Source: an uncultured bacterium
GTDB lineage: Bacteria; Patescibacteriota; Dojkabacteria; J137
Direction of reading: 5' to 3'
DNA length: 64,000 bases
Assembly: GCA_963700155.1 (NCBI GenBank)
Contig: OY969472.1
Span: forward strand, 317,511 to 381,510
Below are positions 3,746 through 23,209 of the stretch, one piece after another. The notes below the pieces were generated by a model, which saw only the letters and a list, made by a program, of their open reading frames with translations, was not told the DNA's origin and searched no databases. The position numbers and the translations under genes are program-made. Within the stretch, counting starts at the first letter, position 1. Every line of letters begins with the position of its first letter.

Positions 3746-3809
3746 AATTTAAGTATATCATTATAATTTCAGATATAATTTTTCAATATTTATTTATAAA
3801 ATTATTTTT

Positions 3810-4673
3810 ATGGAAAATATCGAATACTATTTATTTTTTCTTATTTTAATAACAATATCAGAAATCTTTGTAATATTATCCTTACAATTTCTGAATCGCG
3901 ATAAATTTAAATTAAATTATTTTTCTTTTAATGTTAGGAATTATTATTTAATGCTGTTCCCTCTTGCGATTAGCTTTTTTATAGTAGCAGTAATCAGACA
4001 ATCTTTTGATCTAATTGTACTATTTCTTCTTTTTTCGATTGTTGGAATAATTGGAGAAACACTTTTTAGTTATTGGTGGAAAAAATTATTCCCGAAAAAA
4101 TATTTCGTTTATAAAGTTAAAACAATTTTTAATTCCTATTCAAGTTTGTTAAATTTTATCCCCTGGGGATTAGGAGGATTTTTATTTTTAGTAATAGTAC
4201 AATTAGCAAAGTATAAATATTCAAACCCTATAATTTCAACCGAACTTACAAATAATTTTCAATTCTATACATTATTTTGGATTATATTTATATCTTCAAT
4301 TCCATTTAGCATATTATTAATGTATATATATAGAAAAATTAGACCTTTTGATAAGAATACGTTTAATATAGATTTTATGACATACTTGATTTTCTCCCTT
4401 CCTATGATATTGGCAGTTCTTGCAATTTCATTACTATATTCACCAGATTATTTTTTAATTTCGTTAGGTTTTGGAGTTATTGGGTTTGTTTTAGAATATT
4501 TATTAGGTAAAATGTCGGTTTTCTTCATCTCAAAGAAATTATGGTATTACAATTACAATACAATAGATAATAACCATACAACAATATTAAACATAATACC
4601 TTGTATGGCAGGAGGATTTTTATTTTGGACAGTTGCTTTGATATTTATAAATCTCTTCGGCATTATTTATTAA
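3810..4673 (+). CDS. Polytopic membrane protein, function unknown
   Basis: 287 aa, very hydrophobic (F/I/L-rich) with several predicted TM segments. Confidence 0.4.
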   Translation: MENIEYYLFFLILITISEIFVILSLQFLNRDKFKLNYFSFNVRNYYLMLFPLAISFFIVAVIRQSFDLIVLFLLFSIVGIIGETLFSYWWKKLFPKKYFVYKVKTIFNSYSSLLNFIPWGLGGFLFLVIVQLAKYKYSNPIISTELTNNFQFYTLFWIIFISSIPFSILLMYIYRKIRPFDKNTFNIDFMTYLIFSLPMILAVLAISLLYSPDYFLISLGFGVIGFVLEYLLGKMSVFFISKKLWYYNYNTIDNNHTTILNIIPCMAGGFLFWTVALIFINLFGIIY

Positions 4674-4698
4674 GTTGTGATTCGAATTTGAAGAAAGT

Positions 4699-5511
4699 TT
4701 ATAAAGCAATATCTCCAACTTTTGTTCTACGTAAATTTATTAACATAGCTGGGAAACCTAGTTTTACTCCTAAATCTTCAGCTAACTGACGCATATAAGT
4801 ACCTTTGGAACATTTGATTCTGACTTTTGAAACTGGATAATCTATCTTTTTGCATATTTTTGCACCATTCTCTTCTATGTTTATTTCGTAATTTTTGGTG
4901 AAAATATTTAAAACTTCGCTTTCATATATTTTTACTTCTTTCTTTGGAAGCTCTACTTCCTTCTTGAACTCTTTATTATTAAAGAACTTGACTACTCTTT
5001 TATCTTTATCTTGTACAATTTCAAAAGTTTCAAACTTCCTTGCTAACTTTCTAAGTTTTTCACCATCAACCTTAACTGATGAAAATACTGGTACAAATTG
5101 ATTGTATGAAGGCTGAAATTCTTTTAAAGCATCATTTATTATAGATTCAGTTATCTTAGATTTTAGTTCCTTTAGTTTTATTTTATCTGTAACCACTTCT
5201 ACAATAGCTCCTTCAGGATCGGCTGATGTAGTCGACATACCAAATAGAATTTCAGCCTCGTAAACTTTATTTAAAGTAAGAAACTCGTCTGAAAGTTTTG
5301 TTGCTTTACCTGCAAGAATTATTAATAATCCTGAAGCAAATGGATCTAACGCTCCTGCATGCCCAACCTTTTTTGTTCCAAGCTTTTTTCGATATTCATA
5401 TACAATATCATGTGAAGTTTTCCCTGCCGGTTTATCAGCAGCAAATATTCCGCTTACTCTGCCGAATTCATCTACATAAGCTTTGTTCAATTCATAATCA
5501 TCAATATTCAT
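4699..5511 (-). CDS. truB: tRNA pseudouridine(55) synthase
   Basis: FAADKPAGKTSHDIV...GHAGALDPFASGLLIILAGKATK is the TruB catalytic motif, with the Asp in GALDP. Confidence 0.85.
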   Translation of the reverse strand: MNIDDYELNKAYVDEFGRVSGIFAADKPAGKTSHDIVYEYRKKLGTKKVGHAGALDPFASGLLIILAGKATKLSDEFLTLNKVYEAEILFGMSTTSADPEGAIVEVVTDKIKLKELKSKITESIINDALKEFQPSYNQFVPVFSSVKVDGEKLRKLARKFETFEIVQDKDKRVVKFFNNKEFKKEVELPKKEVKIYESEVLNIFTKNYEINIEENGAKICKKIDYPVSKVRIKCSKGTYMRQLAEDLGVKLGFPAMLINLRRTKVGDIAL

Positions 5512-5590
5512 TCAGTAATTATAGCTTAATAAGTCGTAAAAAATCCGAAAATATATGGGGAATAAAGGAGTGCTTTTTTAATAAAATTTT

Positions 5591-5655
5591 AAGTTGCCCA
5601 AATTGGTTCCAATTTGGGCAACTTTTGGTGCAGATTTGGTTAACAGTTGGGCAAG
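5591..5655. promoter_or_regulatory. 34-nt perfect palindrome (AAGTTGCCCAAATT-GGTTCC-AATTTGGGCAACTT) plus a third direct TTGGGCAA half-site 20 nt downstream; operator and/or terminator
   Basis: Seen in the sequence. It lies between the stop of the 5672..6067 gene and the truB start (5511). Confidence 0.4.
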
Positions 5656-5671
5656 TCAAAAAAGTGGATTT

Positions 5672-6067
5672 TTAGATACCCTCCCGCTCCACAACTTTAA
5701 AATAATAAATGGTCATAACACCATCTCGTTCAAATTCCTCTTTGTGTTCATTTGAAACATATTTTATAGCATCTTCTAATGTTTCAAATCCGCAGTCACG
5801 AATATATTCTATCGGCATTTCTTCCGGTTTTGCAGAAACAATCATTGATACTTGAGCCTTTCCTACTACCTTTTTATTGCCGTCAAGCAGCGGAACGACT
5901 CCGATATAGTTAGTTCTTAATCCACCTTTTAAAGTCGCTTTAATTTCACCAATTTCAGGGATAACTTCTCCTTTATTATCATATATTCTAATACCAAAAT
6001 TCATTTCTACTGGATAGTCTCCATTCTCACCCAAGAATTTATATGGTGCTCTTACAGTTGATGACAT
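5672..6067 (-). CDS. Small cytoplasmic protein, possibly ASCH/PUA-like fold
   Basis: 131 aa; the call rests only on a weak resemblance to ASCH/PUA-like proteins, so it is low confidence. Confidence 0.3.
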   Translation of the reverse strand: MSSTVRAPYKFLGENGDYPVEMNFGIRIYDNKGEVIPEIGEIKATLKGGLRTNYIGVVPLLDGNKKVVGKAQVSMIVSAKPEEMPIEYIRDCGFETLEDAIKYVSNEHKEEFERDGVMTIYYFKVVEREGI

Positions 6068-6147
6068 AATAAATTTTTAAATATATATTAAATCCAATTA
6101 TAACTATATTGTGATAAAATCACTACACTATATTTTTAGTAGATTTT

Positions 6148-6510
6148 ATGAGCAATGATATTTTCGCACAAGAACAACTAAGAAAGACAGAATTTATAAG
6201 AGAACTCGGGAAAAAGATTCGTGCAGCCAGAGATGAGGCGCGATTCTCACAGTTAGAAGTTGGAGTTACCTTAGGTGTTTCTGATAAAACCATCAGCGGT
6301 TACGAATCAGGAAGAATCGCGCCTCCTATCGATAAACTTATGCAACTTGCAGATTTGTTCAAAAAACCAATTACTTATTTTTTAGGTTCTGATCCAAGAG
6401 AATATAAGGTAGCTTCAAGATTAAGAGCTGTAGAAGTTACAATGAAAGAAATAAGAAAACAACTAAATGAAATAAAGTTACTTTCTCAAACTGTTGATTT
6501 AGATTCTTAA
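6148..6510 (+). CDS. XRE-family helix-turn-helix transcriptional regulator
   Basis: LGKKIRAARDEARFSQLEVGVTLGVSDKTISGYESG is a Cro/C1-type HTH. Confidence 0.7.
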   Translation: MSNDIFAQEQLRKTEFIRELGKKIRAARDEARFSQLEVGVTLGVSDKTISGYESGRIAPPIDKLMQLADLFKKPITYFLGSDPREYKVASRLRAVEVTMKEIRKQLNEIKLLSQTVDLDS

Positions 6511-9617: not shown

Positions 9618-10196
9618 TTAAAATCTTTTAGAAAATATTTTTTCTATCTTTTTTGCTAAATTAGTAATCGTAGTGTTGTAATTTTTACTTAAATAATCTT
9701 CACTTAAAGCTAGTTGACTTACATGATATCCATATTCAAATATAAATTGAAAGATAATTGTCCAAATGAGGGAAATAAGTATTATTTGTAAATCTGGGAA
9801 AGGATTAAAAAACAAAATCAAATTATAGACAACAAAAAAGCTAAAAAATATATTTGGGAATATAAAGAATATCTTACGATTTTGCGAAATTACAAATAAA
9901 ATGTAACCTATCATCCTAATTATAAATAGTATTAAAAAGATTAAGGTTATAAGGGAATCAATATTTACAGAGATAATGTAAACAAAAAAAATAAAATAAA
10001 CAATCGTGTCAGTTAATTTATCATCTCTATTGTAACCCTTTAATGAAATACCAAACCCTTTTAATGCTCTCATATCAATCCAGTCTAGGTAAATTGCAAA
10101 TAATACAGTTAAAAGTGGGTTAATGAAAACTCCAATCGCAAAAAAAATTCTAAAAGAATAAATTAATAATTTTATAAACTTCTGACCTTGAATCAT
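9618..10196 (-). CDS. Small polytopic membrane protein
   Basis: 192 aa, mostly hydrophobic. Confidence 0.35.
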   Translation of the reverse strand: MIQGQKFIKLLIYSFRIFFAIGVFINPLLTVLFAIYLDWIDMRALKGFGISLKGYNRDDKLTDTIVYFIFFVYIISVNIDSLITLIFLILFIIRMIGYILFVISQNRKIFFIFPNIFFSFFVVYNLILFFNPFPDLQIILISLIWTIIFQFIFEYGYHVSQLALSEDYLSKNYNTTITNLAKKIEKIFSKRF

Positions 10197-10274
10197 ACAT
10201 TTATTTTATAGAATTAATTAAGCATTGCAATACTCTTAAAGTTTTGTGACAATTAATTACTATTTAATTTCCTT

Positions 10275-11123
10275 ATGATAATGCAGGATTTTAGCTACGA
10301 GTCCAGATTAGTCAAATATAAAGATAATTATATACAAGCCTATTCTATTGGAAGTGGTGATAAGGTAATCTTCTCTTTCCCAAGTTTTCCACATTCAGGA
10401 TTAACATATCTTCTTTTCTTAAAAGACTATAATCTTACTAAATTTAAATTTATTACTTTCGATCTTCCAGGTTGGATTGGTTATTCAGAAAATGTATTTA
10501 AAAATGGAGACTATGATCTAGAAGTTTGTATAAATATTGCAAAACATATTTTAAAAGAATATTCTGTAAAAAAATTTAATGTTATTGGATATTCTTTTGG
10601 TGGAGCACTTGCATTAAAATTTGCTTATGAGATGGAAGACAGTATTGATAAAATAGTTCTAGTTTCAACCATAATAAATTCAAAAATAATTGCTAATTTA
10701 AATACTGTAAGAGCAGTTAAGCTTCTAAAAAAGATAAATAAGCCTTCTATTTTATTAAGAATAATACATAACAGAGTTAAAAAATTTACAAAATTTATAA
10801 TCGCAGAAGGGATCATGCCTGAAGAACTTCTTTTAAAATATATAGATATGTCACAACATATTAATGCTAGAGTACTGTTAGAATCGATTTTCACGTTGTT
10901 TAATTCCGATTTAACCGAAGTATTATTAAATCTAAAAGATAAAAAAGATTTTCTAATTGTAAATTCAAAAGATGAAGCTTCAATGTTTAGAATACAAGCA
11001 GAATTTTTGAGAAGACATTTAGACAACGAAAAATCTATCTATTTGCATGGTACGCATGATGATTTTTTGCTTAACCCACATAAAGATGTAGTGAAAGAAG
11101 TAATTAATTTCCTAATAAAATAA
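10275..11123 (+). CDS. Alpha/beta-hydrolase fold protein
   Basis: Nucleophile elbow VIGYSFGGALA (GxSxG). Confidence 0.65.
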   Translation: MIMQDFSYESRLVKYKDNYIQAYSIGSGDKVIFSFPSFPHSGLTYLLFLKDYNLTKFKFITFDLPGWIGYSENVFKNGDYDLEVCINIAKHILKEYSVKKFNVIGYSFGGALALKFAYEMEDSIDKIVLVSTIINSKIIANLNTVRAVKLLKKINKPSILLRIIHNRVKKFTKFIIAEGIMPEELLLKYIDMSQHINARVLLESIFTLFNSDLTEVLLNLKDKKDFLIVNSKDEASMFRIQAEFLRRHLDNEKSIYLHGTHDDFLLNPHKDVVKEVINFLIK

Positions 11124-11216
11124 ATTTTTTAATTTTTCTCTTCAACTGTTATTTTCTTGGTGCTACAATTCGGAGTCAATAAAATAATTTTCCTTTAGTT
11201 TTTAAATTTCATAAGA

Positions 11217-11552
11217 ATGGCAACTAATATGCATGACCAGCTTCCTTGTCCTAATGGTGGTTTCCCAGGATTTACCCATCTAGGTTTACAAGATCAAATT
11301 AATCTAGTAACTAGGTTAGGAAGAAGAAATGATACAGTAACAGTAGTTCGAAATATGAGAGATCATATGCCATCAATTGATGATATCAAAGCACAATATT
11401 CCCAGATTAGAAATGAATATACTGAACTTGATAGGTTATTTCATAATGGTTGCACTTTAGAGAAAAAAAGAGCAATAGGAAGAAGAATGCAGGAAATAAA
11501 AGAGTTTTGTGGTGATATTGAAAGCTACTTGGGCAGTTCTTTAGAATCTTAA
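11217..11552 (+). CDS. Hypothetical protein
   Basis: 111-aa ORF with no motif recognised. Confidence 0.3.
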   Translation: MATNMHDQLPCPNGGFPGFTHLGLQDQINLVTRLGRRNDTVTVVRNMRDHMPSIDDIKAQYSQIRNEYTELDRLFHNGCTLEKKRAIGRRMQEIKEFCGDIESYLGSSLES

Positions 11553-11571
11553 TTTATTCTTTGTAAAACTA

Positions 11572-11600
11572 AAAGGCGGCGACTTAAAGTCGCCGCCTTT
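11572..11600. terminator. Bidirectional intrinsic terminator: GC-rich hairpin ggcggcgac-ttaaa-gtcgccgcc flanked by A/T runs
   Basis: Seen in the sequence between the convergent 11217..11552(+) gene and fusA(-). Confidence 0.6.
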
Positions 11601-11619
11601 TCAAACTCTATATTGCAAA

Positions 11620-13776
11620 TTACTTATCCTCAGCTCCTAAAATCTTATCCATTAAACCTCTAGGAACTTCTGCATAATGTGAAGGTTCCATATTTGGAGC
11701 TGCAGTTCCTGAAGTAAGATTTCTTAAATCTGAGACATATCCAAATAATTCCGCTAATGGAGCTTCTGCCATAATTTCTTTTGTTTTTCCTCTCTGTATC
11801 AAATTCTTAATAATTCCTCTTTTTGAAGAAAGATAACCTGTTACTGCTCCTACATGCTCTTCTGGAACATTAATTGTTACAGTCATGATAGGCTCTAAAA
11901 GTGCCGGATGAGCAGCTTTCATTAAATTTTTAAATCCATAATAGGCACAGATTCTGAAAGTATCAGTATTTGAGTCAACTTCATGATAAGTTCCATCAAC
12001 AATTTCAACTTCAACATCTACAACAGGATATCCGCCAAGTGGACCTGACACCATTGACTCCTGAACTCCCTTATTTATTGAAGGAATATATTCTCTTGGA
12101 ATTGCACCCCCTTTAATGTGATCAACAAATTCATAACCAGCTCCTCTTTCTCTTGGTCTTATTCTAAAATCAATATCAGCGTATTGTCCTGCTCCTCCTG
12201 ATTGCTTTTTTAATAATTCTCTATGAGCGCCTTCAGTTGTTACAGTTTCTCTGTAAGCAACTTGTGGTTTACCTACATTAACTTCAATTCCATATTCTCT
12301 TTTTAGAATGTCAACTTTAATATCCAAATGAAGTTCTCCCATTCCAGCAATAATAACCTGACCTGTTTCTGGATCAGTTTCTGCTTTAAATGTTGGATCT
12401 TCAGAAACTAATTTCCCTAGTGCTTCAGATAGTTTTTCCTGGTCAGATTTTGTTTTCGGCTCAATTGCAAATTTTACAACTGGTTCTGGGAAGGTAATAC
12501 TTTCAAGAACAATAGGTTTTGATTCGTCACAAATAGTTTGTCCAGTTCTCGTATCCTTAAATCCAACAATAGCTGCAATATCACCAGCTCTAACTTCCTG
12601 AGCTTCTTCTCTATGATTTGCATGCATCATTAAAATTCTACCAACTCTTTCTTTTCCTCCAGTTGAACTATTATAAATATAAGTTCCGGATTGTAACTTT
12701 CCAGAATAAACTCTAAAGAAAGCTAAATTTCCTACATGTGGGTCCACTGCCAATTTAAATACTAATCCGCAGAATGGATCAGTATCATCTAAATGTCTTG
12801 TAATTAATTCCCCTGTTTTTGGATCAGTTCCTGGAATTTCATCTTTATAAACATGTTCTTCTCCGGTTTCTTTGTCAGTTCTTGTAAAAGATTTATCATG
12901 TGGAGATGGAAGATATCTGCATACATTATCAAGCATCGCCTGAACTCCTTTATTTCTTAATGAGGAACCAGCCATAACTGGGAATAACTTTATAGCCATT
13001 GTTGCTTTTCTAATTCCGGCAATTAATTCTTCTGGAGTAATCTCAATACCATCAAGATATTTCATTGCAATATCATCATCTGCATCTGCAACTGCTTCAA
13101 TTAATTTGTTTCTGTATTCTTCTGCTTTTGACTTATATTCTTCAGGTATTTCAATAACTTCTATCTCTTTACCTTCTTCGTCTTTATGTATTCTTGCCTG
13201 CATATGAATAAGATCAATAATTCCATTGAAATCACCTTCTATTCCTACTGGCAATGAAATCGGAACAGCTTTTTCACTCAAATGGTCAACAATACTATTA
13301 TATGATTTATAAAAATCAGCTCCAATATTATCTAGTTTATTAATGTAACAAAGTCTTGGTACTCTGTATTTTTCTGATTGGAACCATACTTTTGAAGATT
13401 GTGGCTCAACACCCATCTTTCCATCAAAAACAACAATTGCTCCATCAAGAACTCTTAAAGATCTTTCAACTTCTGCAGTAAAGTCAACATGACCTGGTGT
13501 ATCAATAATATTAATTCTGTAAATCTGATCATCTAATGTCCAGAATGCCGTTGTAGCAGCTGATTGGATTGTAATCCCTCTCTCTCGTTCTTGTGCCATA
13601 AAGTCCATTTCTGCTGCTCCTTCGTGAACTTCTCCTGTTTTATGTTTTCTTCCTGTGAAGAATAAAATTCTTTCTGTTGTTGTAGTTTTCCCTGCATCAA
13701 CATGTGCAATAATACCTATATTTCTATAGAAATGAGTATCTCTAACCTTTGAATAATCTAAGTGACTCTCGGCCAT
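11620..13776 (-). CDS. fusA: Elongation factor G
   Basis: 718 aa: NIGIIAHVDAGKTTTTERIL..., DTPGHVDFTAEVERSLRVLDGA. Confidence 0.97.
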   Translation of the reverse strand: MAESHLDYSKVRDTHFYRNIGIIAHVDAGKTTTTERILFFTGRKHKTGEVHEGAAEMDFMAQERERGITIQSAATTAFWTLDDQIYRINIIDTPGHVDFTAEVERSLRVLDGAIVVFDGKMGVEPQSSKVWFQSEKYRVPRLCYINKLDNIGADFYKSYNSIVDHLSEKAVPISLPVGIEGDFNGIIDLIHMQARIHKDEEGKEIEVIEIPEEYKSKAEEYRNKLIEAVADADDDIAMKYLDGIEITPEELIAGIRKATMAIKLFPVMAGSSLRNKGVQAMLDNVCRYLPSPHDKSFTRTDKETGEEHVYKDEIPGTDPKTGELITRHLDDTDPFCGLVFKLAVDPHVGNLAFFRVYSGKLQSGTYIYNSSTGGKERVGRILMMHANHREEAQEVRAGDIAAIVGFKDTRTGQTICDESKPIVLESITFPEPVVKFAIEPKTKSDQEKLSEALGKLVSEDPTFKAETDPETGQVIIAGMGELHLDIKVDILKREYGIEVNVGKPQVAYRETVTTEGAHRELLKKQSGGAGQYADIDFRIRPRERGAGYEFVDHIKGGAIPREYIPSINKGVQESMVSGPLGGYPVVDVEVEIVDGTYHEVDSNTDTFRICAYYGFKNLMKAAHPALLEPIMTVTINVPEEHVGAVTGYLSSKRGIIKNLIQRGKTKEIMAEAPLAELFGYVSDLRNLTSGTAAPNMEPSHYAEVPRGLMDKILGAEDK

Positions 13777-13890
13777 ATTCGTTACAAAATTCAGATATAA
13801 AATAAATGATAAAATTGGGATAAAACCTTTTTATTCATGCTTGCGAATTATGCCAGAAAATACAGGAAAAGTCAAAGTGCATTAAGACAT

Positions 13891-14337
13891 TCAAGATTTA
13901 ATAAATGCCTCAACTATTAAAGATTCCGCTTCTTTATCACTAAGACCTTTTGACTGAAGGTAATACATCATTTCCTTGTCTATGTAGCCAATTGTGGCGC
14001 CATGGCCAGCTTTAACAGCTGACTCCTTGATTTCAAGACTTGGAATTGCTCTGGCCATGGCGCCTTCACTCAGCAGTAAACAATCTATTTTCAAGTATGT
14101 ATCTGTATTTATAGCTGATTTTTCAATCCTCAAAATACCTTCAAAGTCAAATTTTGCCTTATCAAAAAGTACTGCTTTAATATTAATCCTTGATTTTATA
14201 TCCGGTTTTCTATGAATAATAACTATTTTGGATTCAGACTTATTTTCTCCTTTCCCAATATATACTGCACTAATTTCACAATTTTCAGAAATCTCAATTT
14301 CTTGAGTTTTAGTTATATCTATCTTGAATTTTTTCAT
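13891..14337 (-). CDS. Short SufB/SufD (UPF0051) C-terminal-domain protein, a possible mini-SufD or remnant
   Basis: 148 aa. C-terminal ...LLLSEGAMARAIPSLEIKESAVKAGHGATIGYIDKEMMYYLQSKGLSDKEAESLIVEAF matches the conserved SufB/SufD C-terminal beta-helix region. The 300-aa N-terminal part of a normal SufB/D is missing. Confidence 0.5.
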   Translation of the reverse strand: MKKFKIDITKTQEIEISENCEISAVYIGKGENKSESKIVIIHRKPDIKSRINIKAVLFDKAKFDFEGILRIEKSAINTDTYLKIDCLLLSEGAMARAIPSLEIKESAVKAGHGATIGYIDKEMMYYLQSKGLSDKEAESLIVEAFIKS

Positions 14338-14369
14338 GAAGTTATTATAGCAAGTGAATCAAAGCAAAT

Positions 14370-17300
14370 TTACTGGATTTCTCTGAACGAATAAGATCTA
14401 TCAGCTATATCTGCCGAAAATATAGCGATAAATTTAGGATCATATTTTATTACAACACCTGGATCTGTTAAATTTGCTTGATAATTCAAATCTCTATGTA
14501 AATTTAAAGTTTTAGCTACTACTCCACCTAGGATATAAAGTCCCTGATATTTATAAGATGAACCCAATAAATTATTTGTATTACTTGAGAACGTACCATC
14601 TGTAACTAAATATGCATCAACTATTTCATAATTTGGTGGAGTTGATGAACTAACTGATATGTAAGGGGACTTAACCGACACAGAGGTAACTGAAATATTT
14701 CCCTTTATGACAAACATACATGCCGAGCTATCTGTATCATTTTTTAATTCTGGATTTATTGTGAGATTCCCTCCCACAAGAATTATTGCTTTAACATCAC
14801 AAGTCGAGGCTCCTAACGACAAATCACCACTTTGTTCTAGAATTGTTTTACTTCCTGGAGAGACGCCAATTAAAGTGGAAATCTTTCCTCCGAATCCCAT
14901 ATTCCCGGTTTTTTTTACTATAGTAGTAGCTTTATTCTTTTCTACTCTATCTTTTACCAAGTCATACCATTTAGTAAAATTTGTTGTTTTCGATGGTGCA
15001 ACAGACTCATCAATGTAGTTTATTGCATAAGTATCAGATTTTGAAATTCTTAGAGATGGGATTGCTGGTGTGCCACTCACAACCGAAAAAGTTGCTAAAT
15101 ATGGAGTTCCTGTATCGCCTCCAACAATTGATCCAGAACCAGAAAAATCGGCTACTATTTGATCGCTACTTTTTACATAATTATAAAACTGTACATTATC
15201 TAATGCTCCTGTAAATGCAACAGACCCATTTACTCCGATACAAGGATTTGTAGCCATAACAAAGTTTGCTGTATTACCTAGATTCGTAACTCCACCAGTA
15301 CTTCCAGATCCTTTTAACACCGAATCAACGTACATCGATATACTTGGGCCCGATCTAGTTATTGTAATAAAATGCCAATTATTATCATTTATCTGCTGAC
15401 TGGTTGACACTCCTTTATAATTTGTTCCGGATGCATCCTGATCCAACTCCATACTTATATATCCATTTCCATAAATCAAATTCCAAAAGCTAGCATGTGT
15501 ACATACCAATCGCTTTGAAATAATATAAGATGTTGCAGCACTATTCGTCTTTATCCAAAACTCAATACTAAAATCTCTCGTTCCAAAATTACCAATACTT
15601 GAGTTAGTACTAACACTATTACTACCATTAAAATTACCTGCAGTACCTTCTACCCCAGATACCCAAGAAGTTCCAGTTCCACTAAAAGTTCCATTATTTC
15701 CTCCACTGCTGTCACTAACAGTTGTACCAGTACCCTCATTGAATTTCCAATTTGCTATTGGAAGACCTTTTGAATAACTATACGCAACTTCACTTGCAGA
15801 TCTTGCATAATTGTATATTTCTGCTTCATCAATACTTCCATTTAATGGGTAACTTGCATCACCTCCAATATAAAAAGTTTTATTAGCTGTTGCATACCAA
15901 TTACCTACAAAATTTTGTTGAGATAATAAAACTCCATCTCGATAGAAATAAGCATATGCTCCATCATATACAACTGCATATTGGTGCCATAATCCATCAA
16001 ATTGAATAGCATTTACAGAAACCACATTTCCACCAAATACTGCAAATCTAAACGAACTTCCTATATATTCAACTGCCAAACCACCAGCTGAAGGAACTTC
16101 TAATAATCTACTTGTATGTGATACAGAGGACTTTAACCAGAAAACCACTGATAGTTTACTTGATGAATTAAAATTTAATGTTGAGCCGGATGTATATGAT
16201 AAAGTTGCACCAGCGCCGCTTCCATTTTTTGTAAATGCATTACCATAACGACCTGTTGAGAATGATCCAGATGAAATAGTAGCAGTATAACCACTATTAC
16301 TTGAATCACTAATTATTGAACCAGAACTCTCATCAAATTTCCAATATGCAATTGGAGCAGTCCCAATATCACCTGGAATTGTTCCATTTCCATAGGTAGA
16401 TTGATAAGTTCCTGTAAAAGGAACAGTAAAACTTGGGTTGTCAGGAATATTCACACTAAACCCCTGATTTGCAGAGATATTCCCTTGATATGCGTACAAC
16501 CAAGGTGTAGGTTGAGAGACATCTTTGTTAACGCTAGCATAGTTACATGCTGAATCCATTCCATCAAGCCTGAAATTAAAAGTATTACCTTGAGATGTAC
16601 TTGTATCGCTATAATTTCTTGTTGGAGCTGTTAAATAGTTACCCAAATTTACACTTCCTCTATGGGTATTTGGTGCAAAATTAAATTGGAGATCTTGCCC
16701 AATAGTATTATCTCTTAAGCCCCCTGTACTATCGGGGCGAGTGATATAGTTAACTACATCAGATAAAGTCCCGTTATCACTCGCCCCATATGTAACATTT
16801 AAAGTCTGGTTTGAATTATAAGATGGGCCAGTTATTGTTAAAGTTGGATTTGTTGTATCAATTGTCCAAGTATCAAGTTTTTTAAACATGAAATTATTTG
16901 AGCCAGTAGCATAAGAACTTACCTCAGTCCCATCAGAATTTCTCATATAAACCGTTCCATATACATTATAGGTACCACTAGGGAATGTGTTCTCGAACCT
17001 AATTTTATAAATTGATGTACTTGAATTACCTGATACAGTCATCTTTGAACTTACACCAACATCTATAAGTTTTCCAGTTCCATTCTCATTAGTCTCATCA
17101 CCACTTGAAATAATTGGAGCAAAAGTTACACCATCATTTTTTAGTGTTGCTCCTTGACCACCTGGATTTAAATCTACAGCTATAGCTTTGCTATTTGCAG
17201 ATTTCTGAAACAAAGTGCCTGCATCTATATAGGTATTATTTTCAGAATAAGTTCCTGTTGTTGGAACGAAAACTAAAAAGCTTCCAAGGAATTGATCAGA

Positions 17301-18188
17301 TTCAGTATCTTGATAAGTAACTGAATATGTTATTGGATTCTCTGTTAACCCACTTGAATTATCCCACCTTCCAGAAATACCACTTGATAAAGAACATGTA
17401 TCAGCTTGTGTAAATGAATGCGAAGTTTCAGTTGGAGTACTATTTATAGTGAAATTCCAAACTGCTGAATTGGCATTATTTGAGCCATTAGTTTTTTGAA
17501 CAAACCAACAATAAGTTGTCCCCCAATTTAATCCACTCGCTGTTGTTGAAAGTGTGCCTTGAGGTAACGTTGCATACTGTGTATAAGTTCCAGTACAACT
17601 CGCACTTAAAAATACTTTATATTGGTTACTTTGTGGACATCCTGTACCCCATCCTGTTGCATCAGTCCAACTTAAATTTACCGAATTATTTGGAATAGCT
17701 GAACCAGTTGATGGAGAGCTTAACGTTGCTGCTCCAGGGTTTGTTGATGTACAACAAGACTGAGTGTTGCACGATCTTGTACCTCCACATGCATTGGTCT
17801 GCGTTCCACCTCCACAAGCAACTGAGCACGAACCCCAGCTATTAGAATCACAGCATGCTTGAGTATTACAATACCTAGAATGTCCACATCCATCATATTG
17901 AATTCCTGTTCCACATGATGCAGAACACGAACCCCAGTTTGGAGTACAAGTTGGAGGTGGAGGACAGCTTCCGCATGTATGACTTCCATCAGGACAAGTT
18001 ATCGGGACTTGGCATGTACCTGAAAAAGATGGAGAACAATAATAAATTCTTGTACATAAAGAATCTGAACAAACAACACAACCAGCTCCATTTCCACAAC
18101 ACTGAGTTGCTGCATCTACATTCTTAGAGTACAAAACTCCCAATATAAAAAAACTTAAAACAATAAAGAAAAAAATATATTTTTTCAT
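14370..18188 (-). CDS. Giant secreted/surface protein 'B': signal peptide, Cys-rich region, two thrombospondin-type-1-like repeats, an FN3-like domain, two LamG/ConA-like lectin domains, and a shared C-terminal module
   Basis: 1272 aa.
- N-terminal hydrophobic signal.
- CTPNWGSCSASCGTGIQYDGCGHSRYCNTQACC and SWGSCSVACGGGTQTNACGGTRSCNTQSCC match the TSP1 pattern W-x-x-C-S-x-x-C-G-x-G.
- PGAATLSSP...VNLSW...YKVF is FN3-like.
- IAYWKFDESSG...FDGLWHQYAVVYDGAYAYFYRDGVLL...IDEAEIYNYARSASEV and IANWKFNEGTG...NNWHFITITRSGPSISMYVDSVLKG...LDNVQFYNY are Laminin_G_3-type domains.
- The last 270 aa are about 60-70% identical to the C-terminus of the 821-aa paralog. Confidence 0.7.
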   Translation of the reverse strand: MKKYIFFFIVLSFFILGVLYSKNVDAATQCCGNGAGCVVCSDSLCTRIYYCSPSFSGTCQVPITCPDGSHTCGSCPPPPTCTPNWGSCSASCGTGIQYDGCGHSRYCNTQACCDSNSWGSCSVACGGGTQTNACGGTRSCNTQSCCTSTNPGAATLSSPSTGSAIPNNSVNLSWTDATGWGTGCPQSNQYKVFLSASCTGTYTQYATLPQGTLSTTASGLNWGTTYCWFVQKTNGSNNANSAVWNFTINSTPTETSHSFTQADTCSLSSGISGRWDNSSGLTENPITYSVTYQDTESDQFLGSFLVFVPTTGTYSENNTYIDAGTLFQKSANSKAIAVDLNPGGQGATLKNDGVTFAPIISSGDETNENGTGKLIDVGVSSKMTVSGNSSTSIYKIRFENTFPSGTYNVYGTVYMRNSDGTEVSSYATGSNNFMFKKLDTWTIDTTNPTLTITGPSYNSNQTLNVTYGASDNGTLSDVVNYITRPDSTGGLRDNTIGQDLQFNFAPNTHRGSVNLGNYLTAPTRNYSDTSTSQGNTFNFRLDGMDSACNYASVNKDVSQPTPWLYAYQGNISANQGFSVNIPDNPSFTVPFTGTYQSTYGNGTIPGDIGTAPIAYWKFDESSGSIISDSSNSGYTATISSGSFSTGRYGNAFTKNGSGAGATLSYTSGSTLNFNSSSKLSVVFWLKSSVSHTSRLLEVPSAGGLAVEYIGSSFRFAVFGGNVVSVNAIQFDGLWHQYAVVYDGAYAYFYRDGVLLSQQNFVGNWYATANKTFYIGGDASYPLNGSIDEAEIYNYARSASEVAYSYSKGLPIANWKFNEGTGTTVSDSSGGNNGTFSGTGTSWVSGVEGTAGNFNGSNSVSTNSSIGNFGTRDFSIEFWIKTNSAATSYIISKRLVCTHASFWNLIYGNGYISMELDQDASGTNYKGVSTSQQINDNNWHFITITRSGPSISMYVDSVLKGSGSTGGVTNLGNTANFVMATNPCIGVNGSVAFTGALDNVQFYNYVKSSDQIVADFSGSGSIVGGDTGTPYLATFSVVSGTPAIPSLRISKSDTYAINYIDESVAPSKTTNFTKWYDLVKDRVEKNKATTIVKKTGNMGFGGKISTLIGVSPGSKTILEQSGDLSLGASTCDVKAIILVGGNLTINPELKNDTDSSACMFVIKGNISVTSVSVKSPYISVSSSTPPNYEIVDAYLVTDGTFSSNTNNLLGSSYKYQGLYILGGVVAKTLNLHRDLNYQANLTDPGVVIKYDPKFIAIFSADIADRSYSFREIQ

Positions 18189-18189
18189 A

Positions 18190-18651
18190 TTATATAGAAT
18201 TTAAACATTCCAATCTATCAAATGGGTATTTGATAAAATTTGATAAACCCCCATATGAATTATCCAATTTATCTGAATAACTCGGATTATTAATATAAAT
18301 TGCTAAAACCTTACAATCTCGAGGGGGCAATAAGTTACTGGTCTCACCTTCATTAATATGACTCCATTCCCCTAACATAGTTTCAAGATTAGTTTTTTCA
18401 AATGAATTTAATGGCAACTTAACCTCATCTTTTGCACTGTTAAATATAGAAAGATAACGATCATTAATATCTTCCAAGTGTAAGGTATAACTAAATTTTG
18501 AAGTATTTAGATAGTAAACCGTGAAATTATCTCCAGGAAAAGAATGTCCTGATAAGTCATCTTCTTTTTCTATATTAAAAAGAAGGTACCCACCGACAAA
18601 TATTAAAATTCCAACAATTAATAAAATAGATGCAAAAATTATTTTTCTCAC
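18190..18651 (-). CDS. Small N-terminally membrane-anchored protein, P2 of module b
   Basis: 153 aa; N-terminal TM. The extracytoplasmic part is S/N/Y-rich with two Cys near the C-terminus. Immediately upstream of giant gene B. Confidence 0.4.
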   Translation of the reverse strand: MRKIIFASILLIVGILIFVGGYLLFNIEKEDDLSGHSFPGDNFTVYYLNTSKFSYTLHLEDINDRYLSIFNSAKDEVKLPLNSFEKTNLETMLGEWSHINEGETSNLLPPRDCKVLAIYINNPSYSDKLDNSYGGLSNFIKYPFDRLECLNSI

Positions 18652-19100
18652 TTTAAATACAAATTAATATTATATGAATAAGTCCCTTGAAAATAGTAAC
18701 TAACAATACTAATATCATATGAACTTCCTGATTGTAGATAGCTACTAAGTTGCTGTTTATCTATAGTTGAATAACTATAATCAGGTTGAAAGATACCAAC
18801 TTTATTAGCAATTTCTGTAAACGGTATATCAACATTTACATCATTCTCTCTAAAATTTATAACAAAAAAGATACGGTCACTATTTACAACAGAATTTTTC
18901 AACGTTCCTAATATACTTCCTGAATTACCGACAGCATGTACATTAACATTATTAGAAACCAACCACTCACTGCTACTATACATGTCATTCCCCCAATAAT
19001 TTATTTTATTATTGTAGTCAGAGTATCTATATATACAAAAAACAACAGCAATTAGAAACGTTATTATTGAAAATATCAAAAAAAGATTTTTTTTCATCAA
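18648..19100 (-). CDS. Small N-terminally membrane-anchored protein, P1 of module b
   Basis: 150 aa; N-terminal TM and an S/N/Y-rich ectodomain. It overlaps the next gene by 4 bp, indicating translational coupling. Confidence 0.4.
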   Translation of the reverse strand: MMKKNLFLIFSIITFLIAVVFCIYRYSDYNNKINYWGNDMYSSSEWLVSNNVNVHAVGNSGSILGTLKNSVVNSDRIFFVINFRENDVNVDIPFTEIANKVGIFQPDYSYSTIDKQQLSSYLQSGSSYDISIVSYYFQGTYSYNINLYLK

Positions 19101-19154: not shown

Positions 19155-21620
19155 TCAAAGGACTTCTCTAATAGAATATGATCGATCTGCTAAATCATTT
19201 CCAAACATAATCAAATACTTTGGGTTATATTTCACAACTACTCCCGGATCAGTAAGATTGGCTTGATAATTCAAATCTCTTTTCAAAGATAATGCATTCC
19301 CCGGAGCGCCATTAACAACCATTCCTCCATCTATATACAACCCTTCATATTTATTTGTAGAACCTGGAAGATTGTTTGTAAAAGTTTCAAGTTTCAAGTC
19401 AGTAATTATATATGCTTCAATCTTATCGTAATATGGCTGAGTAGTAGAATCTACAGCAATGGTAGGCGACTTGGCGGCCACAGAAGTAAGATTAACATTA
19501 CCTTTAACTACAAACATACATGCAGAAGCATCATTATTCTCTACAAAATCTGTACTTAAAGTTAAATTACCACTAATAAGGAATATTACCTTAACATCAC
19601 AAACTCCATTACTAATCGTCAAGTCGCCCCCCGATTGTTCAACTATCACTTTATCACCTACTGACACTCCAATTCCATTTGCAATACTTCCATCAATACT
19701 CATATTTCCACTCTTTGTTACTATTGGGCTTTTCTTATTTTTCTCTACTCTATCTTTTACAAGGTCATACCATTTAGAAAAATTACTTGATTTCGGTGGT
19801 TCGACAGCATCATTAGTATAATTTAGTGCATAAGTATCAGTTTTTGAAATCCGTAAGGTTGGTACTATAGTATTTCCACTAATAACAGCATAACTTGAAA
19901 GATAAGGAGTTCCAACATCATTGGCAAATGGTACTTTAAAGTTAGGATTATCTGGTATATTAACTTCAAAACCTAAATTCGCAGAAGCATTTCCAAGATA
20001 ACTAATGATCCACGGTTTTGGTTCAGATACTCCAATTGTTGTTCCCGAAATATTACATGCATTATCTTTTGCAACAAGTTTATATGAATAATTAGCAGGT
20101 ATTCCAGTTGTTTTATATTTATGTAAACCTAAATTACCGGTATTTATACCAGCGTTAGAACCTTGAGGATAATCATATGGTGTATTTCCTAAATTAATTA
20201 CCCCGACACTTGAATCTGTTAATTGTGCTCCACTTGATTTATCAGACCAAATATAAGAATAAATTGTATATAATCCAGAACCTCCTGAATCTGTTGCACC
20301 CCAATTTACGTTAAAAGTTTGGTCAGTATTATAAGTAGGACCGGTTAAAACTGGGCCAGGATTTGCCAAATCAAATCTCCAACTATCTAATTTTATAAAC
20401 ACTTGTGAATCCAATGGTGTTGCATAAGAAGATACTATAGTTCCATCACTATTTTGCATTAATACCATCCCATATACATTATAAGTTCCGCTAGGGAATG
20501 TATTCTCCATTCTTATCTTAAAATTTGCTGTTGCAGTATCTCCACTTACAGTCATTTTAGTATCTACATCTGCTCCTAAGACAGTTGCATGGCCATTTTG
20601 AGTAGTTTCATCTCCACTTGTTATTCCTGACGACCACGTAATATTATTATTCAAGGTACTAACTTTACCATTGGAGTTATTAATTAAAACTCCTATACCA
20701 CCAGCATTTATTGCTTCCTGCTCAACTGTATTAGCATTTACAGTTGGATTATTTTCTCTATATACTGGAACAAAAACTAAATAACTTCCTAAAAAAGTAT
20801 CACTTTCTGGATCTTGAAAAGAAAATGAATAACTAATTGGGTTCTCGGTTTCTCCACTTGGATTATCTGCCCTTCCTGAAATCCCATCCGATATCTTGCA
20901 GGTATTGTCCTGGGTAAAATTATGACTTAAATTTATAGGTGTTTTATTCACTTTAAAACTCCAGACTGAAGAATTTTGAGTACTTTTGCTATTATTTTTC
21001 TGAACAAACCAACAATAATTTGCCCCCCAAGATAATCCACTAACATTTTTATTTAATGTACCTTGAGGTACACTTCCATAATTTGTATAAGTACCAGTAC
21101 AATTTTGACTTATGAATACTGTATAAGTATTTGTGTTTGGGCATCCAGTGCCCCAGGAAGCTGAATCAGACCATTGTAAATTCACTGAGTTATTTGGAAC
21201 AATTGAACCGTTAGCAGGAAAAGACAATGTTGCAGCTCCTGGGGCACTTACTGTACAACAAGATTGAGTATTACAAGCCCTAGAATGGCCACAGCCATCA
21301 GATTGAGTTCCTCCACCACAAGATTTGGAACATGCGCCCCAGTTTGGAGTGCAACCTCCTCCTCCTCCACCAAGGCAGCATCCCATATTAACTTCTCCAT
21401 CACCATTTCTAAAACATCTAACACCTACATTAGGAACATTTTCTGTATGAAATCCTGAGTCACAGGGGTTGCACTCTGGAGCGCATTCTGCAGAAACCCC
21501 AATTATAGAACTAACAACTCCTGAACTTGAGTAATTACTTCCAGTATTGAAAAAGGAAATTACCCCAAGTATAAAAAGTGTTATTAAAACAACAGTTTTA
21601 AGTTTTTTAAAATAATTCAT
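19155..21620 (-). CDS. Giant secreted/surface protein 'A', paralog of B: signal peptide, Cys-rich region with a Gly6 tract, one TSP1-like repeat, an FN3-like domain, and the shared central and C-terminal modules; no LamG domains
   Basis: 821 aa. It contains CTPNWGACSKSCGGGTQSDGCGHSRACNTQSCC (TSP1-like) and PGAATLSFPANGSIVPNNSVNLQWSD (FN3-like). It is collinear with B throughout, except for a roughly 450-aa insertion in B between ...NIPDNP.F.VPF and GTPYL.... Confidence 0.7.
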   Translation of the reverse strand: MNYFKKLKTVVLITLFILGVISFFNTGSNYSSSGVVSSIIGVSAECAPECNPCDSGFHTENVPNVGVRCFRNGDGEVNMGCCLGGGGGGCTPNWGACSKSCGGGTQSDGCGHSRACNTQSCCTVSAPGAATLSFPANGSIVPNNSVNLQWSDSASWGTGCPNTNTYTVFISQNCTGTYTNYGSVPQGTLNKNVSGLSWGANYCWFVQKNNSKSTQNSSVWSFKVNKTPINLSHNFTQDNTCKISDGISGRADNPSGETENPISYSFSFQDPESDTFLGSYLVFVPVYRENNPTVNANTVEQEAINAGGIGVLINNSNGKVSTLNNNITWSSGITSGDETTQNGHATVLGADVDTKMTVSGDTATANFKIRMENTFPSGTYNVYGMVLMQNSDGTIVSSYATPLDSQVFIKLDSWRFDLANPGPVLTGPTYNTDQTFNVNWGATDSGGSGLYTIYSYIWSDKSSGAQLTDSSVGVINLGNTPYDYPQGSNAGINTGNLGLHKYKTTGIPANYSYKLVAKDNACNISGTTIGVSEPKPWIISYLGNASANLGFEVNIPDNPNFKVPFANDVGTPYLSSYAVISGNTIVPTLRISKTDTYALNYTNDAVEPPKSSNFSKWYDLVKDRVEKNKKSPIVTKSGNMSIDGSIANGIGVSVGDKVIVEQSGGDLTISNGVCDVKVIFLISGNLTLSTDFVENNDASACMFVVKGNVNLTSVAAKSPTIAVDSTTQPYYDKIEAYIITDLKLETFTNNLPGSTNKYEGLYIDGGMVVNGAPGNALSLKRDLNYQANLTDPGVVVKYNPKYLIMFGNDLADRSYSIREVL

Positions 21621-22006
21621 AAACTAAAAGTTTCAAAAGAATTCTCTAACTTATCCTTACATGAAATATATCTTACCAAGTCCTTATCATTATTAATATT
21701 TTTAATATCAATTTCAATATTAAAATACTTGCATGTATTCTTCGGGACTAAAAGCTCTCCACTTACAAAAAAATTATCAAGAAAATCATTTGCAGTTTTA
21801 TCTTTAATAGGAAAACTAAACGTCTTATTGTTTTCATTAACCAAACTTAAAACATCATTTTGTAAATGTATATTTACTTTTGAAGTATCAATATAAATAG
21901 AATCATAATCATAGTTTTGTATAGTAGTATTAGCTAATTTATATATAGTTAAACCAATAAAAATTATTGAAAGTAATAATAATATTAAAATTAAAAGTTT
22001 TCTCAA
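21617..22006 (-). CDS. Small N-terminally membrane-anchored protein, P2 of module a
   Basis: 129 aa; MRK + TM, with two Cys near the C-terminus as in the 153-aa P2b. It overlaps giant gene A by 4 bp. Confidence 0.4.
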   Translation of the reverse strand: MRKLLILILLLLSIIFIGLTIYKLANTTIQNYDYDSIYIDTSKVNIHLQNDVLSLVNENNKTFSFPIKDKTANDFLDNFFVSGELLVPKNTCKYFNIEIDIKNINNDKDLVRYISCKDKLENSFETFSL

Positions 22007-22010
22007 AAAT

Positions 22011-22517
22011 TTAATTTAATAAATAAAACCTGCTTACATAAGGATTTCCTTGTGTACTTTCTGGATAAGATATCTCAAGATCAATTCCACCTATACTCTT
22101 TAATTTATCAATAAAATCTGAATGATTTAATGATTCAGTTTTTAAAGAAACTGTATCAAAATCATATAAACTTCCTGTAAGATATGAATTAGGAATTGTT
22201 AAATCCATAGTTGATTTATTATTATCGTCACCTCCATTAAATTCTCTTAAAGTTGCTTTAGCAAAATTCCCAGTTTCAGGCAGAAATTCTAATGCACTAA
22301 CGAATCCACTATACTCTTTTCTATGAATGATACTTTTTAAAGAAGAATTGTAATTAAAATCATAAAGCCAGCTAACAGATGAAGTTTGAGAACTTTGCTT
22401 AAGTGAACCTATTAATCCCCCTGTGGAATTACCAGTAAAAAAGATAAAAATAACAAATGAAATTATCAAAATAAAAATGGCTATAACTACACCAATATTT
22501 TTCCTTAAGTTTTGCAT
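22011..22517 (-). CDS. Small N-terminally membrane-anchored protein, P1 of module a
   Basis: 168 aa; N-terminal TM and an S/N/T-rich ectodomain. It is the first gene of the cluster. Confidence 0.4.
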   Translation of the reverse strand: MQNLRKNIGVVIAIFILIISFVIFIFFTGNSTGGLIGSLKQSSQTSSVSWLYDFNYNSSLKSIIHRKEYSGFVSALEFLPETGNFAKATLREFNGGDDNNKSTMDLTIPNSYLTGSLYDFDTVSLKTESLNHSDFIDKLKSIGGIDLEISYPESTQGNPYVSRFYLLN

Positions 22518-22579: not shown

Positions 22580-23209
22580 TTAAGAGAAAGCTAGTAAATT
22601 TTTAATTGGGACATAAGAAGTTCTGTGAAGACTACAAATACCGAATTTATGAATTGCAAATCTATGCTCTTTTGTTCCATACCCCTTATGTTTTGCAAAA
22701 CCGTAATTGGGGAATTCCAAATCTAATCTTTGCATTAATCGATCACGCTCTACTTTTGCTAAAATTGATGCTGCTGCAACAGAATAAAAAGTAGAATCTC
22801 CTCGAATTTTTTTTAGTGAATTCTCACTAAAATCTTTAGAAAATTGGCCATCAATTAAAAAATATGTATGGCTATCATCATATTTCTCAATGACTTCTGT
22901 TATTAAATGTTCAACAGTTTTCCCAATGCCAATACTATTAATTTCTTTTAAGCCTCCAAATAAAACTGAGTATTTATGAGTAGAAAGAAAAGAATACACC
23001 TCAGATCGCTCATCTTTTGTTAATTGCTTGGAATCAGTTACTTTTTTTACTGGTTTAGAATCAAATTCATAAATATATGCACCAACTGCTACAGGACCTG
23101 CCCAACATCCTCTTCCTACTTCATCGATACCGATAATTCGTGTATACATACCTGTGCTGAGAAGTTCTTTTTCATGTTTTGGAGTTAAAAATTTTTTCTT
23201 TTTCTTCAT
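22580..23209 (-). CDS. rnhB: Ribonuclease HII
   Basis: RIIGIDEVGRGCWAGPVAVGAY matches the RNase HII active-site motif. Confidence 0.85.
   Translation of the reverse strand: MKKKKKFLTPKHEKELLSTGMYTRIIGIDEVGRGCWAGPVAVGAYIYEFDSKPVKKVTDSKQLTKDERSEVYSFLSTHKYSVLFGGLKEINSIGIGKTVEHLITEVIEKYDDSHTYFLIDGQFSKDFSENSLKKIRGDSTFYSVAAASILAKVERDRLMQRLDLEFPNYGFAKHKGYGTKEHRFAIHKFGICSLHRTSYVPIKNLLAFS

Follow-up and report, generated by a model that had tools for sequence, protein, structure and literature searches.

Two LamG domains in the stalk-head linker of one of two paralogous, putatively secreted proteins of a Dojkabacteria bacterium

The 64-kb window analysed in this study (contig OY969472.1, positions 317,511 to 381,510, assembly GCA_963700155.1; G+C 31%) derives from an uncultured bacterium of the Dojkabacteria lineage of Patescibacteria, and its minus strand carries two paralogous genes for large proteins, here named A and B, of which only B holds a pair of LamG domains. 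Gene A (19155..21620) is an open reading frame (ORF) of 821 amino acids (aa) with the plain, insert-free architecture. Gene B (14370..18188) is an ORF of 1272 aa, for which the word 'giant' in the first-pass annotation was generous. From its alignment to A and its Pfam matches, together with structural models, the B product can be divided into a signal peptide, two Cys-rich TSP1-like repeats, a predicted Fn3/Ig-like stalk, the two LamG domains and a predicted C-terminal beta-solenoid module. Both genes lie in a tightly packed minus-strand run which starts with RNase HII (22580-23209) and continues with ORFs of 168 and 129 aa (21617..22517), A, ORFs of 150 and 153 aa (18190..19100), B, a SufBD-core-like gene and EF-G. 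The four small proteins, encoded in pairs directly upstream of A and of B, each have an N-terminal hydrophobic helix and are predicted to be membrane-anchored; none has a family match in Pfam or NCBIfam. The 129-aa ORF and A share 4 nucleotides (nt) at the start of A, the ORFs of 150 and 153 aa likewise have 4 nt in common, and a single base separates the 153-aa ORF from B; this spacing suggests that the small ORFs are co-transcribed, and possibly translationally coupled, with A and B.

The BLASTP comparison of A with B gave two collinear high-scoring segment pairs, the first matching A94-587 to B118-605 (50% identity, E 9e-154) and the second A568-820 to B1025-1271 (57% identity, E 3e-90). 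In the global alignment a 431-aa block, B592-1022, formed a single large gap between A565 and A566 (window 19925/19926), where A has its insert-free junction. The first-pass annotation had described B as A plus a 450-aa insertion with clean boundaries at 15190-16420. The single block was borne out by the alignment, rather than an array of scattered small indels; its size was not, being 431 aa at 15123..16415 on the minus strand, close to the earlier coordinates, and the total length difference of 451 aa includes a further repeat of 33 aa. The quoted junction motifs, NIPDNP(N/S)F(K/T)VPF before the block and GTPYL(S/A) after it, are exact in the alignment, and the block amounts to a clean-bounded cassette of two whole LamG domains in a linker between scaffold modules. 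The second, smaller difference between the paralogs is the gap at B105-137, an extra copy of a Cys-rich repeat (repeat family D2, CxxxWGxCSxxCGxGxQ...CNTQxCC), which is present as two tandem 99-nt (33-aa) copies in B (17751..17949, minus strand) and as a single copy in A (21255-21354, minus strand). Every other indel is at most 5 aa.

The source is a metagenome-assembled genome (MAG), and repeated paralogs may mislead assemblers, so that B might be a chimeric or misassembled ORF in which the scaffold gene was joined to an unrelated LamG gene. This explanation has a negligible chance of being right. Over B, the insert, both junctions and the flanks, the window agrees at 100% identity with a Logan assembly made independently (L001, 8827 nt); the insert is therefore not a misassembly, nor an artefact of this record. 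The reading frame is also continuous, both flanks are homologous to A, codon usage is uniform, and analogous inserts are found at the same linker in other genomes.

The block appears to consist of a linker of about 20 aa and two complete LamG domains, with no partial domain remaining. Its halves were scanned separately, and each exceeded the Laminin_G_3 (PF13385) gathering cutoff of 27.6 bits by itself, in agreement with the two LamG domains proposed earlier. LamG1 (B ~612-808, Pfam core 670-802; 15765..16355, minus strand) scored 70.3 bits (E 2.7e-19), and LamG2 (B809-1022, Pfam core 854-1011; 15123..15764, minus strand) scored 76.2 bits (E 3.9e-21). The two domains begin with IAYWKFDESSG and IANWKFNEGTG, respectively, sharing (I)A(Y/N)WKF(D/N)E. 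LamG2 also matched Toxin_R_bind_N and Laminin_G_2 of the same ConA-like jelly-roll superfamily, and among PDB sequences it matched LNS/LamG domains of neurexin-1 alpha (E 9e-11). For LamG1 there was no credible match among PDB sequences, and its hits to Fab heavy chains were Ser/Gly-rich noise. By their profile matches, the inserted domains appear to be ordinary members of Laminin_G_3. Several more special identities were considered and rejected. A recent tandem duplication of one LamG domain was rejected, as LamG1 and LamG2 are only 28% identical and a plain self-BLAST of the insert was empty. A clostridial neurotoxin receptor-binding domain (PF07953) was rejected, as only this jelly-roll model matched, at 49 bits and beneath the stronger Laminin_G_3 match, and no other toxin domains were found. 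Membership in TafC (NF052521) was rejected at 38.4 bits against a cutoff of 410, with only the LamG part aligning. A target of a diversity-generating retroelement was rejected, as neither a template repeat nor a second copy of any part of the LamG region was found in the window.

The scaffold around the insert is not covered by existing families. A had no Pfam or NCBIfam match at E<=0.1, and B outside the insert had nothing above noise in Pfam at E<=1 (best E 0.1). The AlphaFold2 model of A, built from a 40-sequence alignment, reached a mean predicted local distance difference test score (pLDDT) of 84.2, with 511 of its 821 residues at 90 or above; within residues 120-815 the ten-residue blocks were mostly above 80, and the Cys-rich region 26-119 was poorly modelled. 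Foldseek searches of the PDB with the region ~120-550 returned tandem Fn3 domains and the stalks of SiiE, PrgB and antigen I/II (E 3e-8 to 2e-6), and the family profile matched the Fn3 domains of titin and Dscam among PDB sequences (E 5e-6) over profile positions 115-210, the first beta-sandwich. At both the fold and the profile level, the stalk is thus predicted to be a chain of Fn3/Ig-like beta-sandwiches. The insertion point of B corresponds to A563-566, inside a coil (548-577) which connects stalk and head in the model. The C-terminal module that follows (B1023-1272; 14373..15122, minus strand) is 57% identical to A568-820. Modelled alone with 60 sequences, A540-821 reached a pLDDT of 93.5 and a predicted template modelling score of 0.91, and is composed of stacked short strands with one flanking helix, like a beta-solenoid; it holds a Cys pair invariant in the family (C674/C701 in A).

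At the N-terminus, B has a segment like a Sec-type signal peptide (…SKNVDA|A) and A a hydrophobic helix. Cysteines are concentrated in the first 150 residues, with 13 of the 20 in A and 23 of the 32 in B. Together, the signal-like N-terminus and the N-terminal cysteines fit extracellular, disulfide-bonded proteins, as A and B probably are. The likeness of the Cys-rich repeat to TSP_1 (PF00090) is a motif resemblance (WGxCSxxCGxGxQ), for no Pfam family matched B1-150 at E<=1; PF00090 is among the precomputed matches of P0005 and P0007, relatives that also have the repeat. Pfam, NCBIfam and the PDB contain no description of the scaffold family, of its beta-solenoid head or of its recurrent insertion slots.

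Related loci were found through the neighbouring EF-G gene, and searches of GTDB genomes with family-derived peptide patterns gave no match. The EF-G of the window is 83-84% identical to that of MAGs labelled Dojkabacteria, 'Patescibacteria group' or, inconsistently, Saccharibacteria, which places the host among the Patescibacteria (CPR). The unit of two small genes and one large gene adjoins RNase HII and EF-G in relatives (loci L002, L003, L006, L009 and L082), the conserved order being RNase HII, small, small, large, SufBD-like and EF-G, and it has been duplicated as a whole in the window and in L082. Relatives conserve the 'YWG-motif' partner, which in the window is the 150-aa protein.

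No family member compared is as close to A or B as these two are to each other (core identity 51-53%, as compared to 26-43% with all others). In the neighbour-joining tree A and B are sisters, followed by P0037, whose linker is free of any insert; P0036 and most of the 105 family representatives likewise have none at B's linker. In the comparison of syntenic loci, the LamG block was found in 0 of six related genomes, whose homologous genes lie just upstream of EF-G (L002, L003 with two copies, L004, L005, L006 and L009). Because A and B are sisters and the outgroups have no insert, whereas loss in A requires an extra event, the LamG block was most probably gained once, in B, after the duplication. 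The first-pass annotation had left insertion and deletion open between the paralogs; the outgroups argue for insertion in B and disfavour deletion.

An ancestor of A and B which already had the LamG pair, with A losing it by a precise deletion, perhaps between short repeats, must still be weighed, as insertion and deletion are indistinguishable from two sequences alone. A 10-nt direct repeat, TACAGGAACT, does flank the block, with one copy exactly at the 5' edge of the insert (16407..16416, minus strand) and the other just past its 3' edge (15105..15114, minus strand; the TGT of ...GGDTGTPYL), and recombination between the copies would remove 434 codons in frame. However, the junction of A reads VPF-ANDVGT-PYL and not the VPF-TGT-PYL expected from repeat-mediated loss; two events, a gain before duplication and then a loss, would be needed instead of one; and P0037, P0036 and the syntenic genes of the six related genomes all have an empty linker. 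The repeat itself also has a chance expectation of ~1.4%, the share of random 60-nt window pairs from the gene with at least 10 nt in common, and the gene has a third copy of the 9-mer ACAGGAACT that forms part of TACAGGAACT. Deletion in A is thus very unlikely. As for the insertion in B, the TACAGGAACT repeat may be a trace of microhomology or, as the gene is Thr/Gly-rich, have arisen by coincidence; it is suggestive only and was not used as evidence, because of this chance expectation and because the event is old.

Both the duplication and the gain appear to be old. Four-fold degenerate sites of A and B are 42% identical, as compared to 37% expected from composition alone, and are thus saturated. 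No gene conversion between A and B was seen, the sliding-window comparison revealing no stretch of high synonymous identity. The G+C content at third codon positions (GC3) of the insert is 0.155, and that of the flanking B segments is 0.19-0.20. The best matches to the insert in 5.8 billion proteins were tandem (tri-)LamG proteins of other bacteria of the candidate phyla radiation (CPR), with 24-29% identity, and the LamG inserts of other family members are no closer to the B domains (24-30%). Within the window, a tblastn search for a donor of the insert found only the insert itself. The saturated sites, the host-like codon usage and the lack of a donor more than ~30% identical point to an old event, and the clean boundaries do not imply a recent one, because they reflect whole domains sitting in a linker. 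A recent horizontal acquisition of the insert was considered and found no support, with GC3 near that of the flanks and the best relatives 24-29% identical.

The family was surveyed by exhaustive HMMER search, in which a four-sequence profile was run against 1.84 billion cluster representatives. Word-indexed protein search was insensitive here: A alone gave 8 matches, a 40-sequence profile gave 4, and a query with B's insert missed B itself, so exhaustive search was needed. It found 160 representatives at E<1e-30, 105 of which cover most of the profile. The median length of members without large inserts was 831 aa, so the 821-aa A represents the base architecture. When members were mapped onto the profile, large insertions were clustered at few recurrent positions and not scattered: core inserts of 100 aa or more occur in 25 of the 105 full-span members and fall at six recurrent sites. 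The slots were the N-terminal Cys-rich region (12 members, with variable repeat number and inserts up to 209 aa), profile positions ~205-245 (6 members), ~400-500 (4 members), 549-580, which is the site of B (4 members), ~625-680 (8 members), ~710-730 (3 members) and 755 (5 members). From ~400-500 onward, including B's site, these positions fall in predicted coil of the A model; the N-terminal slot is where the poorly modelled Cys-rich region ends, and the ~205-245 slot borders on the first beta-sandwich.

The inserts that Pfam could name belong nearly all to ligand-binding domain classes. At B's site, P0070 has three F5/8-type-C (discoidin) domains and P0073 has one; at position 755, P0038 has two Laminin_G_3 domains, P0073 one Laminin_G_3 domain, P0003 and P0078 Kelch propellers, and P0108 a weak match to SBBP beta-propeller repeats; at ~630, P0066 has two C-type lectin domains; and at ~460, P0093 has a Kelch propeller. 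At or near B's linker site, P0141 has a 344-aa insert (residues 629-972) with repeats 'GDWNGNGTDTIGLYD' which are FG-GAP/VCBS-like, and no Pfam match was found for it at E<=1e-3. The long inserts of P0081 and P0169 and the Cys-rich array of P0113 were also scanned, and no Pfam match was found; other long inserts occur in P0110, P0145 and P0163, and Cys-rich arrays in P0109 and P0118. Because LamG, discoidin, C-type lectin and Kelch domains are found at this and other sites, it is reasonable to suppose that the inserts diversify binding specificity. The LamG pair might instead be a neutral spacer which merely lengthens or stiffens the molecule for more reach and has no ligand specificity of its own, as it sits in the linker between stalk and head, where added domains lengthen the molecule, and as additional Fn3-like domains or Cys-rich repeats make up some of the inserts in the family. 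This is improbable, for beyond those two kinds every Pfam-identified insert is of a ligand-binding class (LamG, discoidin, C-type lectin or Kelch), and the same classes recur at different loops, some of them inside the head module.

A parallel pair was found in L082 (Logan SRR30597359), where one contig encodes the plain P0004 (898 aa, 3513-6209) and the decorated P0070 (1524 aa, 10001-14575), the latter with its three discoidin domains at B's linker and a 209-aa N-terminal expansion. The gene order, DnaG, L34, L19, HIT, RNase HII, small, small, P0004, small, small, P0070 and EF-G, matches the neighbourhood in the window, and the 'YWG-motif' membrane protein of the L082 modules is homologous to the 150-aa protein of the window. 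In the tree, P0004, P0070, P0073 and P0038 form a clade of their own, separate from A/B. Given these separate clades, module duplication followed by decoration of one copy seems to have happened at least twice, and the same linker appears to have been used independently, for LamG domains in one lineage and for discoidin domains in the other.

Some further features of the neighbourhood were recorded. The three-gene module is conserved near the EF-G gene in Dojkabacteria-like Patescibacteria, and the small proteins encoded before the large genes are of 120-170 aa, the first type with a conserved 'NYWG..(E)..W(L/I)' motif. Next to B, a stand-alone protein of 148 aa (13891-14337, minus strand) has a Pfam match confined to the C-terminal half of the SufB/SufD core beta-helix (SUFBD_core positions 106-232, E 1.7e-38); proteins with 50-60% identity to it are encoded beside the gene for the large putative surface protein in L002, L003, L005, L006 and L009. 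Elsewhere in the window, an 840-aa protein (55427-57949, plus strand) has matches to TrwB/VirD4-type coupling proteins and HerA-like ATPases and may be part of a type IV secretion or conjugation-like machinery of Patescibacteria. Two large DUF4012 proteins are encoded at 32748-35894 and 47462-49684 (both minus strand), the first fused to an NAD-dependent epimerase/dehydratase domain.

Taken together, we consider it probable that A and B arose by module duplication, that B then gained the cassette, and that the large protein acts as an adhesin at the cell surface, with its inserts diversifying ligand specificity. A and B would be lineage-specific tandem duplicates of a three-gene module encoding two small membrane-anchored proteins and one large secreted protein. 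After the duplication, copy B would have received the two-LamG cassette in the coil linker between stalk and beta-solenoid, as well as one extra Cys-rich repeat; the entry of whole domains into a flexible linker would leave the scaffold fold undisturbed. The large protein would sit at the cell surface, where the two small membrane proteins encoded with it might hold it. The LamG pair would provide a new or altered surface for binding a ligand, such as a glycan or protein carried by a host cell, a partner cell or a polymer, and the cell might thereby present a plain and a LamG-decorated version, two specificities on one adhesin-like scaffold. Across the family, lectin-type and propeller domains would be accommodated by about six permissive loops. 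The surface location of A and B, their adhesion and their specificity for ligands are all inferred. ConA-like lectin domains of Patescibacteria have been regarded as likely attachment factors (PMC12911398). It is also possible, though we advance it tentatively, that the three-gene module is a dedicated apparatus for host or substrate recognition, in which lectin and propeller cassettes are exchanged among about six loops, and in which duplication plus cassette gain, as with A/B and P0004/P0070, widens or switches host range.

The chief competing explanation would make the C-terminal beta-solenoid a lyase- or hydrolase-like enzyme and the inserts carbohydrate-binding modules (CBMs) that target polymers, the protein serving nutrient acquisition and not adhesion. 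Patescibacteria rely on external polymers, LamG/ConA-like and discoidin folds act as CBMs in many glycoside hydrolases, and the weak Foldseek matches of the C-terminal module are all beta-solenoids (beta-helices), pectate lyases and tailspikes among them. However, none of these matches is significant, and the pectate lyases have probabilities of at most 0.04 and TM-scores of at most 0.2. The best match, likewise not significant, is to a non-catalytic ice-binding beta-helix of the DUF3494 type (PDB 7bwy, 3wp9; probability 0.84, E 0.33, TM 0.40/0.53), which is likewise a small right-handed beta-solenoid with an alpha-helix alongside; with 11% sequence identity and no Pfam match, membership of the module in that family is unsupported. 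In addition, no catalytic family was found at E<=0.1 in Pfam and NCBIfam for A, or at E<=1 in Pfam for the B scaffold, and an Fn3/Ig stalk of the kind typical for adhesins makes up half of the protein. An enzymatic function is accordingly judged unlikely.

The adhesin proposal nevertheless has several points against it. Neither the PDB nor BFVD gave a significant structural match to the C-terminal module, for which no significant sequence match was found either, and the module may be an anchor, an enzyme or a binding surface. No recognisable cell-wall or membrane anchor was found except the N-terminal hydrophobic segment, so the large protein could be released rather than displayed. LamG/ConA-like folds occur also in glycoside hydrolases and as inert spacers. 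Finally, neither a close LamG donor nor an ortholog of B, by which the gain could be dated within the B lineage, was found in the databases searched.

As compared to known systems, the overall design of a beta-sandwich stalk with lectin-type binding domains is that of known modular adhesins. The specificity of the Gram-positive and giant adhesins SiiE, PrgB and antigen I/II comes from lectin-type heads, and, like A in the Foldseek comparison, these proteins have a beta-sandwich stalk and are secreted. They have no sequence homology to A and B, which are without LPXTG or RTX features, have a predicted beta-solenoid head and, across the family, take up binding domains at several internal loops and not at one end. 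The Laminin_G_3/ConA-like lectin proteins of Patescibacteria and DPANN, among them tri-LamG proteins such as P0009 of candidate division WWE3, have domains of the same family as the insert, and arrays of 600-740 aa with LamG domains in tandem cover 93-98% of B's insert in alignments, at 24-29% identity; in those proteins LamG makes up nearly the whole protein, whereas B has its two LamG domains within a linker of a conserved scaffold unrelated to them. The neurexin LNS domain is of the same jelly-roll family as LamG2, but neurexin is a eukaryotic synaptic protein and only the domain fold appears to be common to both. TafC, a subunit of the surface filaments known as haloarchaeal Tat-fimbriae (PMC11821415), aligns through model positions 149-369 of 373 with B811-1024 (E 7.8e-10); B has no Tat signal and is not a member.

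Domain gain by one paralog after the duplication of a surface-protein gene is a textbook pattern and is not surprising. The family-level pattern of slots and the parallel pairs of plain and decorated proteins in episymbiotic bacteria are of moderate interest. The insertion-tolerant sites mapped here in a stable scaffold may be useful for protein engineering. Patescibacteria are ultra-small, mostly uncultured bacteria which are thought to live attached to other cells. The pair of A and B offers a natural comparison within one genome, the same scaffold with and without the LamG pair, and the recurrent lectin-accepting loops of the family point to concrete, expressible candidates for the proteins by which these bacteria may recognise hosts or glycans.

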